A stretch of DNA of 64,000 nt from a virus, in IMG/VR virus record IMGVR_UViG_3300010430_000004, positions 1 to 64,000 of that record; one strand, given 5' to 3'. A model generated the notes under the pieces. That model was not told the DNA's origin, did no database searches, and was given only the letters and a program-made list of their open reading frames with translations. Positions 8,194-51,599 of this stretch are shown here, in pieces; within the stretch, counting starts at the first letter, position 1; each line of letters opens with the position of its first letter. The position numbers and the translations under genes were made by a program.

Positions 8194-8580
8194 ATGAGAT
8201 TATGGGCACAGACACTTAAAAACTATATGAATATCAACTGCTTTGAAAAAACCAGTGAATGGACTGTTAGAGAAAATGAAGAAAATCTTCTATATTTTCA
8301 ATTAGTTGATGCTGATAAGGATAATTTGCGATACATTTCTAAAGCCACTGTTCTAACTGTTGACGTTACTTTTCCAAGCATTGACGATGATTCTGAATTT
8401 ACAGTGACTGCCTCTAACCCTGATGTTGATGACAAATCTGTATTTTGCATTACCATACCTGACGATGCTACCCCTGCTTCTGGAAACTTTACAGTTTCAG
8501 TAACTGAAGATGGGAAGACTAGAAAATTTGTAGTTCTTGCTGGAATAAGCGTAGAACTTCTTAACCCTGGAAGCTGCTAA
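8194..8580 (+). CDS. hypothetical virion protein (beta-sandwich-like)
   Basis: 128 aa, beta-rich; late promoter. Confidence 0.6.
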   Translation: MRLWAQTLKNYMNINCFEKTSEWTVRENEENLLYFQLVDADKDNLRYISKATVLTVDVTFPSIDDDSEFTVTASNPDVDDKSVFCITIPDDATPASGNFTVSVTEDGKTRKFVVLAGISVELLNPGSC

Positions 8581-46911: not shown

Positions 46912-46921
46912 TATTTATCTT

Positions 46922-47075
46922 TGTAGTTGGGAGCTAAGTATCAACGCACTCCAAACCATACATTTTGAATATGTAGCTACTGTGTGTTGGTCGTTGAGAA
47001 GACCAGTGACCCATCTAAACAAAAGTCTCTCATGTACGGTTTGGTCCGTTTAATGATCCGTTTCAACGCACAGGA
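46922..47075 (+). ncRNA. unknown structured RNA
   Basis: Intergenic; CTGTGTGTTG/CAACGCACAG, TACAT/ATGTA and GGAG/CTCC stems; follows TGATATTT. Confidence 0.45.
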
Positions 47076-47101
47076 CGCATGGTTATTTTATGATATTAAA
47101 G

Positions 47102-47272
47102 AATTGAACATTGAAAGCGTGGGTCACTCAGGGTAGCTGACATAGTGACATCTGGCTGTCCACCTTTTTACGCCTGATGAGGATTACCGAAACATAGAAA
47201 TATGTCGCGTGGAGTCTCCCCAGGACAGGAATAACTGGAGACCTAGGCTACCCACTCTTTGAATGTTCAATT
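47102..47272 (+). ncRNA. closed multibranch RNA leader containing the hammerhead
   Basis: AATTGAACATT/AATGTTCAATT and GGGTAGC/GCTACCC stems enclose the ribozyme. Confidence 0.7.
47166..47214 (+). ncRNA. type I hammerhead ribozyme (2-bp stem II)
   Basis: Stem I TTTTACGC/GCGTGGAG, CTGATGA, GG-ATTA-CC, GAAA, stem III CATA-GAAA-TATG, GTC; predicted cleavage after 47206. Confidence 0.88.
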
Positions 47273-47281
47273 AGAGGAATT

Positions 47282-47596
47282 ATGGATAAAGACTTTCTTG
47301 AACAGCTACAATTAATCATTTTTAATAAGGTTCGTCTAGAACCAGTAGGTTATACAGTCAAAATTTTGATGCCCTCTTCAATGTACGACCAGTGTATTGA
47401 CCATTTCACTGCACTGGGTATAAAACCGTATATAGGAAAATTGGAACTGTCTGGACAAAGCGGCCCCCATTATAGTTATGTAGTTTTGATAAATCCAGAC
47501 GCTGATGAAGTGGACCAACACGCAGTATCTGAAGCTGTAATGATTCCAGCTAAACTGGACGGTTTGGGTCCTATACTAGAATACGTCCATATCTAA
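47282..47596 (+). CDS. hypothetical protein
   Basis: GAGG RBS right after the hammerhead leader. Confidence 0.65.
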   Translation: MDKDFLEQLQLIIFNKVRLEPVGYTVKILMPSSMYDQCIDHFTALGIKPYIGKLELSGQSGPHYSYVVLINPDADEVDQHAVSEAVMIPAKLDGLGPILEYVHI

Positions 47597-47614
47597 TTTC
47601 GATATTAATATTTA

Positions 47615-47683
47615 TTCAAGGCATCCTAGAGTCGCGATAGGATGGTGGGAGTAAACCGCACGAAAGGCCCACTTCACCTTGGA
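47615..47683 (+). ncRNA. three-way-junction structured leader
   Basis: TTCAAGG/CCTTGGA encloses CATCCTA/TAGGATG and GTGGG/CCCAC hairpins. Confidence 0.6.
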
Positions 47684-47697
47684 TGTTTGGAGAATAT

Positions 47698-49209: not shown

Positions 49210-49917
49210 ATGAACAGAAGAGATCTTTTAAAAACCGGAGCAGCACTTTCTGCCGTTGCATTTTTGCCTTTTTATAAAAGCAAAACAAAACCAAAGTGGG
49301 CAAAGGCTGATCATATTAAAACTTTAGATAGTTGTCTTTATCAGTATAATAAAAGAATAACCAAAGATCTTCCACCTGTTTATTACAAATGGGGAAAGAA
49401 ACTAAACGCATCAATAGATGCCAACACTACTACTTATATCAGGCAAATTTCTATAGAAATGGCAGCGCCCAATGTTACCAAACAAAATATCATAAATGAA
49501 ATTAAAGAAAAATGGAACGATGACTCTGCAATCTTAACTACTATTGGTGCAGAAGGGGCTTTTATCGATTTGGATACTGAAACCTTTAGAGCTCATAGAG
49601 ATATAGCTTCCCTTAAAAGATCCTTAAAACAAAACAGAGAATACGAAGATTCGAAAAGCATGACAGAATATAAGGAATGTATTATTGATAAAAATCCTCA
49701 GTATTCTAGAAAGTGGAGAGAATGGTACACTGAAAATAAAAGGCACATCCATGTATTGCCTGTGGGAGAAAAATCTATAATCAAAGAGTCTTATAAAACA
49801 AGCAATAGATTTTGTATAGACTCTTTTGCTAATCAAAACATTGCCGCCAGAGACAAGACTATTCAGGATATAAAAAATAAAGAAATTAACCCACTTTATT
49901 ATAGGTCCCTTATATGA
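49210..49917 (+). CDS. protein with twin-arginine (Tat) signal
   Basis: MNRRDLLKTGAALSAVAFLP. Confidence 0.7.
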   Translation: MNRRDLLKTGAALSAVAFLPFYKSKTKPKWAKADHIKTLDSCLYQYNKRITKDLPPVYYKWGKKLNASIDANTTTYIRQISIEMAAPNVTKQNIINEIKEKWNDDSAILTTIGAEGAFIDLDTETFRAHRDIASLKRSLKQNREYEDSKSMTEYKECIIDKNPQYSRKWREWYTENKRHIHVLPVGEKSIIKESYKTSNRFCIDSFANQNIAARDKTIQDIKNKEINPLYYRSLI

Positions 49918-51530: not shown

Positions 51531-51599
51531 GGAAAAGTAGTTTAATTGGTTAAAACCCCCTCGTTGAGGGGAATGTCGGTTCGAGTCCGGCCTTTTCCG
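51531..51599 (+). tRNA. tRNA-like element (Asn GTT-like) with anticodon arm 4 nt too short
   Basis: GGAAAAG/CTTTTCC, GTTT/AAAC, CCCTC-GTT-GAGGG, GTCGG-TTCGAGT-CCGGC; no CCA. Confidence 0.75.

Follow-up and report, generated by a model that had tools for sequence, protein, structure and literature searches.

Hammerhead ribozymes cleave RNA to leave 5'-OH and 2',3'-cyclic phosphate ends, and a stem II of only 2 bp can be active when it is closed by a G-C pair. The type I hammerheads of bacteria and phages (Rfam family RF00163) have a complete core, an open stem I, a GUC cleavage site and an intergenic place in phage genomes (PMC3088659); their roles are largely unknown (PMC6765202). Smaller forms include RAGATH-1 (RF03152), a type I hammerhead with an upstream hairpin, and the minimal hammerheads of the PLE type, in which helix III is missing and tandem copies cleave as dimers (PMC7761336). 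Theta ribozymes are minimal HDV-like RNAs with the nested topology P1-P2-P3-P1.1-P4 (PMC10879173). In retrozymes, two hammerheads are located in the terminal repeats of multicopy elements with circular RNA.

GOLLD and ROOL are conserved phage RNAs in tRNA clusters, and permuted tmRNA is a two-piece form held by pairing. The c-di-AMP (ydaO) and guanidine-II riboswitches are pseudo-symmetric aptamers, composed of two similar halves round a dyad. Concerning processing, RNase III cuts long closing duplexes, and tRNA 3' ends are trimmed by RNase Z or exonucleases.

In this work, we are discussing a hammerhead from a virus record of 168,536 nt that is rated complete, of which the first 64 kb (64,000 nt; the window) were analysed. 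The encoded tail sheath has its best relative in Myxococcus phage Mx1 (39.5%), which makes the virus a large myophage. An initial annotation had described the hammerhead as caged inside a closed 5' leader. Comparative sequence analysis shows instead that the "cage" is a conserved phage RNA of ~95 nt (47117-47161 plus 47207-47254; the host RNA), built from two alike halves, A and B, and that the hammerhead is an optional insert at its joint.

The locus and its hammerhead

The locus occupies a 370-nt gap separating two small ORFs and has a folding z-score of -3.1. An identical sequence is present in three other assemblies; hence, the hammerhead stretch is not an assembly error. The following features are found:

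47091-47098, + strand: promoter-like box YGATAYTA; the genome has 46 copies, 15 of them in its non-coding fraction of 4.9%
47102-47117, + strand: 5' strand of the outer closing stem P0, pairing with 47257-47272
47117-47161, + strand: half A of the host RNA, with 5' arm NCGUG (N = G47117), hairpin 47123-47128/47144-47149, PK2 strand 47131-47137 in the hairpin loop, CAUCURG and PK1 strand 47156-47161
47162-47206, + strand: optional insert, composed of a spacer, the 5' strand of stem I and the type I hammerhead core, with the predicted cut after 47206
47207-47254, + strand: half B of the host RNA, with 5' arm NCGYG (N = G47207) that doubles as stem I 3' strand, stem 47215-47219/47237-47241, PK1 strand 47223-47228, conserved loop GAAUAACU (47229-47236), CCUAG and PK2 strand 47247-47253
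47257-47272, + strand: 3' strand of P0
47273-47596, + strand: ribosome-binding site (RBS) and orphan 104-aa ORF (47282-47596), outside the conserved part of the element

Transcription probably starts just 3' of the box, and ORF 47282 is probably co-transcribed with the element. The box, as YGATAYT(A), occurs nine times between 45587 and 52533 of the window, several times at gene ends before G+C-richer non-coding segments; this region is an island of probable small RNAs, and maybe the phage's equivalent of a tRNA cluster. A tRNA gene with a shortened anticodon arm, the single one called in this genome, is located at 51531-51599, and 49210-49917 encodes a 235-aa phage protein bearing a twin-arginine signal peptide. 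Downstream of a box at 47600, a multibranch hairpin (47612-47686) closes near the RBS of the next ORF; its z-score is only -1.3 and it has no Rfam match. The upstream stretch 46915-47095 is rod-like (z-score -0.3) and gave no homologue in our search; its positions 47005-47013 are perfectly complementary to 47120-47128 of half A.

The core reported in the initial annotation is complete, with CUGAUGA at 47174-47180, GAAA at 47189-47192 and GUC ending at 47206 (span 47174-47206), and the predicted cut, 47206/47207, matches it. Also the 2-bp stem II (47181-47188 including its 4-nt loop; closing pair G47181-C47188) and the GAAA-capped stem III (47192-47205; an A-U pair plus 4 bp) were recovered as described. 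The motif follows the core rule C3-U-G-A-N-G-A9, G12-A-A-A15.1, U16.1-H17 and the type I layout of three helices round the core, an open stem I and G10.1-C11.1 closing stem II. The 8-bp stem I is possible (47166-47173/47207-47214; five Watson-Crick and three G-U pairs), but stem I mostly comprises 3-6 bp in the family, and the host fold competes for the bases of the outer U/GGAG pairs. The short stem II, which was suggested to make cleavage conditional, is no sign of this, since 2-bp stems are ordinary (27/142 homologues).

A structured search of the 168.5-kb genome gave three loose hammerhead matches, of which the target alone also passed the strict criteria; Markov controls (60 windows) yielded 0.017 loose and no strict hits per 64 kb. 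A second hammerhead-like pattern at 8494-8546 of the window (+ strand; 10-bp stem I) is probably a chance product, because its stem II starts with a U-A pair, its stem III is weak and it lies inside a reading frame ending at 8580. Likewise, the single match to a tight hammerhead pattern (L001), inside a gene, was taken as chance.

Selection signs across the 142 hammerheads of the listed members indicate a genuine ribozyme. CUGANGA is exact in 139/142, every one of the 142 has a complementary first stem I pair, of which six forms occur, and the stems covary among homologues, with 114 distinct stem II and 122 distinct stem III sequences. The cleavage triplets (GUC 81, GUA 49, AUA 5, AUC 0) reflect the natural hammerhead spectrum (PMC1636495), and the isolated window motif folds as a hammerhead. 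On these data, the window motif is a real type I hammerhead, with cleavage as a prediction.

As such, it belongs to a known kind. It differs from the RF00163 hammerheads in its short stems, in the apparent lack of a loop II pseudoknot that would speed the ribozyme (pairing of loop II with the 5' spacer did not exceed the control) and in scores below the Rfam thresholds: RF00163 did not match in the window, and the homologues reach 24.7-28.7, below the threshold of 34. Furthermore, it invariably adjoins a conserved host domain at that domain's first base and takes the domain's 5' arm as stem I partner. With RAGATH-1, which scores 15.2 bits on the window versus a gathering score of 56.3 (E 3.5), it shares the small type I fold and an upstream hairpin; RAGATH-1, however, comes without a host RNA. 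In contrast to the PLE-type hammerheads, helix III is present (5 bp) and the hammerhead is single-copy.

The host RNA, its spread and its neighbours

Evidence of a larger RNA comes from homologues in which the same modules are arranged differently. A BLAST match in Pectobacterium phages covers the hammerhead and the hairpin following it; the module located 5' of the ribozyme in our locus is there 3' of it, which amounts to a circular permutation. In a Microcystis phage, both modules are joined by 3 nt without a ribozyme. Scanning viral, genome and metagenome collections for the pattern extended the family to at least 248 distinct members. Among the 248 listed, 144 have the A-hammerhead-B form of the window, 14 the permuted hammerhead-B-hairpin-A form, 66 a linker of ≤5 nt and no ribozyme, and 24 other joints. 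An intact hammerhead is missing in 90 of them. Three architectures share a single cut position, the predicted cut always falling at the first base of half B. Medium-length linkers in five loci (L093, L126, L131, L154, L261) keep a possible stem I strand, often with a small hairpin, without a core; possibly, these are decayed hammerheads or another processing signal.

Each half opens with a 5' arm NCGYG and a stem, whose loop carries a pseudoknot strand together with a short conserved motif; URG follows, and then a strand pairing with the other half's loop. As strong covariation shows, the halves are locked together by two reciprocal pseudoknots. In a MAFFT alignment of 51 ribozyme-less members, pairing holds for 93.4% of the cells, double changes are seen in 21 of the 28 pairs, and the covariation score is 0.608, compared with 0.184 for shuffled and ≤0.17 for slid controls. 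While PK1 and the A stem were used by the parser to pair the halves, the B stem and PK2 played no part in the selection of members; the former is 100% paired, and the latter reaches at least 6 bp in 98% of members versus 14% of swapped partners. CG is invariant in both 5' arms, and the GAAUAACU loop of B is near-invariant, the loop of A being variable; several invariant letters were imposed by the search patterns and were relaxed in later scans. A covariance model built from ribozyme-less members only finds 47115-47257 (E 3.5e-12), once in the genome. Half-element monomers did not stand out with our parser, which required both halves.

The helix GGGUAGC/GCUACCC (47131-47137/47247-47253), previously drawn as the closure of a multibranch, is real, but covariation makes it a pseudoknot, PK2, emanating from the loop of hairpin A; hairpins A and B and the second pseudoknot, PK1 (47156-47161/47223-47228), had been overlooked. 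In the relaxed scans, position 5 of A is paired to the C in the GAAUAACU loop of B (G-C 233, U-A 11), and the base before PK1 to B's first loop base (G-C 238, U-A 4). These tertiary pairs overturn a program-drawn GUG/CAC pairing at 47119-47121. Other partners considered for G5 of A, namely the CAUCU strand and the CAC after PK2, do not compensate when G5 changes to U.

The outer stem is present as well, comprising 11+4 bp rather than 11; it ends at 47272 and directly abuts the AGAGG (47273-47277), where a spacing of 1 nt had been given. Flank pairing of -10 kcal/mol or better occurs in 88% of hammerhead forms versus 25% of swapped controls. In terms of architecture, P0 is equivalent to the linker hairpin of the permuted members, in opened form. 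The long closing duplex that an RNase III-type cut would need is present, and P0 possibly serves as a processing stem.

No Rfam family covers the host RNA at gathering or E-value level (window plus 25 homologous loci), the HDV families included. The full-text literature gave no description or motif of it, with the lists of PMC10690425 and PMC5737381 compared via Rfam only, and its motifs are absent from the supplements of PMC3088659 and PMC10085705. Provisionally, given that the candidate catalogue of PMC10690425 was compared via Rfam only, we consider the host fold new; it is here, not in the hammerhead, that the newness lies. As in GOLLD, ROOL and permuted two-piece tmRNA, the host RNA occurs in tRNA clusters and has permuted or two-piece forms held by pairing; however, it has only ~95 nt, is pseudo-symmetric and is predicted to be nicked by its own ribozyme. 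With theta ribozymes, it has in common the small size, the double pseudoknot and, in some of the tRNA-linked members, a place directly after tRNA 3' ends, but its topology is that of two reciprocal loop-tail pseudoknots, its habitats are broad, the hammerhead is separate and cleavage by the host RNA itself is only putative. The similar halves round a dyad, with invariant CG in both arms, resemble the ydaO and guanidine-II aptamers; in contrast to these, a consistent downstream gene set and an expression platform are lacking, and the first bases are coupled by identity, not complementarity.

The element is shared by hundreds of phages that are not related to one another. It is found in the cultured phages Pappous, SDFMU_EhYP and Mwe-JY26 and in at least 15 complete E. 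coli genomes, with hosts ranging from enterobacterial prophages to large environmental phages. Around it lie tRNAs, tmRNA and phage genes of various kinds, many members being situated between tRNAs. In the enterobacterial prophages, it replaces the top of the lambda late-leader hairpin, which, from general knowledge, suggests release by RNase III; in a T7-like phage, it follows the capsid module. In Pappous (L006:2484-2680), the element is followed by a tRNA-Met whose 5' strand can pair with the flank upstream of the element, and the annotation places a hypothetical CDS across the RNA. The neighbouring genes of members pointed to no partner protein or ligand, and neither Rnl2 nor TROVE/Ro60 genes were found in this genome.

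This setting bears on the assumption of a cis-acting leader in which the mRNA of ORF 47282 has its 5' end remodelled or stabilised by conditional self-cleavage. The hammerhead indeed lies near the 5' end of a probable transcript starting after the promoter-like box directly upstream, an RBS follows directly downstream, competing folds could gate the ribozyme and cleavage would leave the mRNA a 5'-OH end. A role as a leader serving ORF 47282 is, however, not supported. The ORF is an orphan without relatives in our searches, and its RBS lies outside the outer stem, mostly unpaired before cleavage (47273-47276 are 83-99% and 47277 is 45% unpaired in the nested ensemble); the outer stem is not cut by the ribozyme. 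A Shine-Dalgarno sequence with a start codon within 45 nt is found in only 26 of the 196 A..B members listed, no neighbouring gene family recurs beyond a few loci, and members were not seen to precede related genes consistently and with an expression platform, as a riboswitch or cis-regulatory leader would. Considering also the members between tRNAs and the 66/248 listed without a ribozyme, we regard this reading as quite improbable. The other option raised in the initial annotation, namely that an sRNA is released, gains support, with the release itself being predicted.

The two circular permutations and the patchy spread could also be explained by a selfish, retrozyme-like RNA that is cut by the hammerhead, circularised and re-inserted. 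An 8-nt direct repeat flanks the element in Pappous, and the T7-like Enterobacter phage SDFMU_EhYP (L008:1430-1660) carries the element together with a lambdoid flanking hairpin, 95.7% identical to a prophage copy, which suggests recent transfer between phage families. However, there is one hammerhead and one copy per genome, not the retrozyme arrangement, and the only two break points are both in linkers. RtcB is not linked to the element, occurring in 3/50 hammerhead-bearing versus 4/31 other records, and is absent from this genome; a linked reverse transcriptase is not among the recurring neighbours. Of all explanations, a selfish RNA is thus the one to which we give the least credit.

Identical first bases and the tRNA register

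The first bases of the two arms, N(A) and N(B), are identical in 240 of the 248 members listed, with all four letters and in all classes; a count of 212/219 compares with 84 expected. No other column tracks N, the information shared by N(A) and N(B) being 1.35 bits versus ≤0.14 elsewhere. Shared descent as the cause is ruled out, since both bases changed in 52 of 56 nearest-neighbour pairs differing in N, and in 14/14 independent pairs they switch together (p 1e-4). Homogenisation of terminal repeats is unlikely because position 4 is unmatched. The simplest reading would be a direct same-base pair at the pseudo-dyad; alternatively, both bases might contact one and the same outside partner or belong to one active site.

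A further regularity concerns tRNAs. Half A begins exactly 1 nt past the discriminator base in 12 of 31 tRNA-linked cases, compared with 5 of 155 tRNA-tRNA spacers (p 2e-7), and within 1 nt of the tRNA 3' end in 13/31; the window is not such a case. In L151 (near 1800-1900), a permuted B-A form without a hammerhead lies 4 nt after the discriminator; thus, tRNA processing could supply the 5' end that is made elsewhere by the ribozyme. In L073, L124 and L150, tmRNA genes, one of them permuted, cluster with ribozyme-less members, the match in L150 being weak.

A rival reading makes the pseudo-symmetric host RNA a new ribozyme class, with B's GAAUAACU loop forming an active site on A's 5' arm. It might cut just 5' of N(A), trimming the 3' ends of upstream phage tRNAs, or exchange or ligate the two equivalent N ends, with the hammerhead recruited for the second cut in place of a degenerate site at N(B). 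The tRNA register, shared with the likewise tRNA-abutting theta ribozymes (PMC10879173), argues in this direction, as does the pairing of A5 with B's conserved loop, which brings N(A) near it, the loop of A itself being variable. Small size, two pseudoknots and phage contexts suit known self-cleaving ribozymes (PMC6765202). However, ordinary tRNA 3' processing by RNase Z or exonuclease trimming would explain the register equally well, and N(A) can pair inside the outer stem both in L017-like members and in the window. Furthermore, none of the columns forms a pocket tracking N, and the HDV/theta nesting is missing. We therefore rate a new ribozyme as rather unlikely.

Proposed maturation and meaning

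The reading that we prefer, at a probability of roughly 0.55, is that we are dealing with a stand-alone gene for a phage non-coding RNA, in which the hammerhead would serve as built-in maturation nuclease and the symmetric core would act in trans. For a stand-alone RNA speaks the gene-like placement of members between tRNAs, in the lambda late-leader hairpin and after the T7-like capsid module. Transcription would start just past the box at 47091-47098, and the hammerhead would fold on the nascent RNA with the 5' arm of B as stem I partner; the predicted cut at 47206/47207 would leave a 5'-OH on the first base of B. The freed arm would then quit the weak stem I and dock, in an order of events that we infer, by the pairings seen in covariation. 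The resulting nicked two-piece RNA, held by PK1, PK2 and the outer stem, would equal the core of the ribozyme-less and permuted members. Near the pseudo-two-fold axis, the two 5' arms would cross, with G5 of A paired to the C of B's GAAUAACU loop and the first bases probably touching as a same-base pair, a contact deduced from their correlation. That the compact symmetric fold acts in trans during infection, either as a decoy or as a scaffold, with a dimeric host protein or a symmetric ligand as its target, is a guess with slightly less than even chances. Any effect on the ORF 47282 mRNA, such as a structured 5'-OH end, would be a by-product.

Two observations qualify this maturation scheme. 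With 90/248 listed members lacking an intact hammerhead, the cut would be dispensable or made another way. Furthermore, the stem I probability in context is ≤0.09 (family median near 0.01), which counts against the preferred reading, though this value stems from a nested folding model that ignores pseudoknots and kinetics.

Given that the host RNA also exists without the hammerhead, wild-type, core-mutant and natural ribozyme-less versions are directly comparable, and the presence of the element in cultured phages and E. coli genomes makes these proposals testable at once. The coupling of two bases by identity suggests that they touch at the dyad or share an active site. For the hammerheads, finally, the host RNA would give a whole subfamily a defined place, namely a predicted nick at one fixed joint of a conserved RNA.
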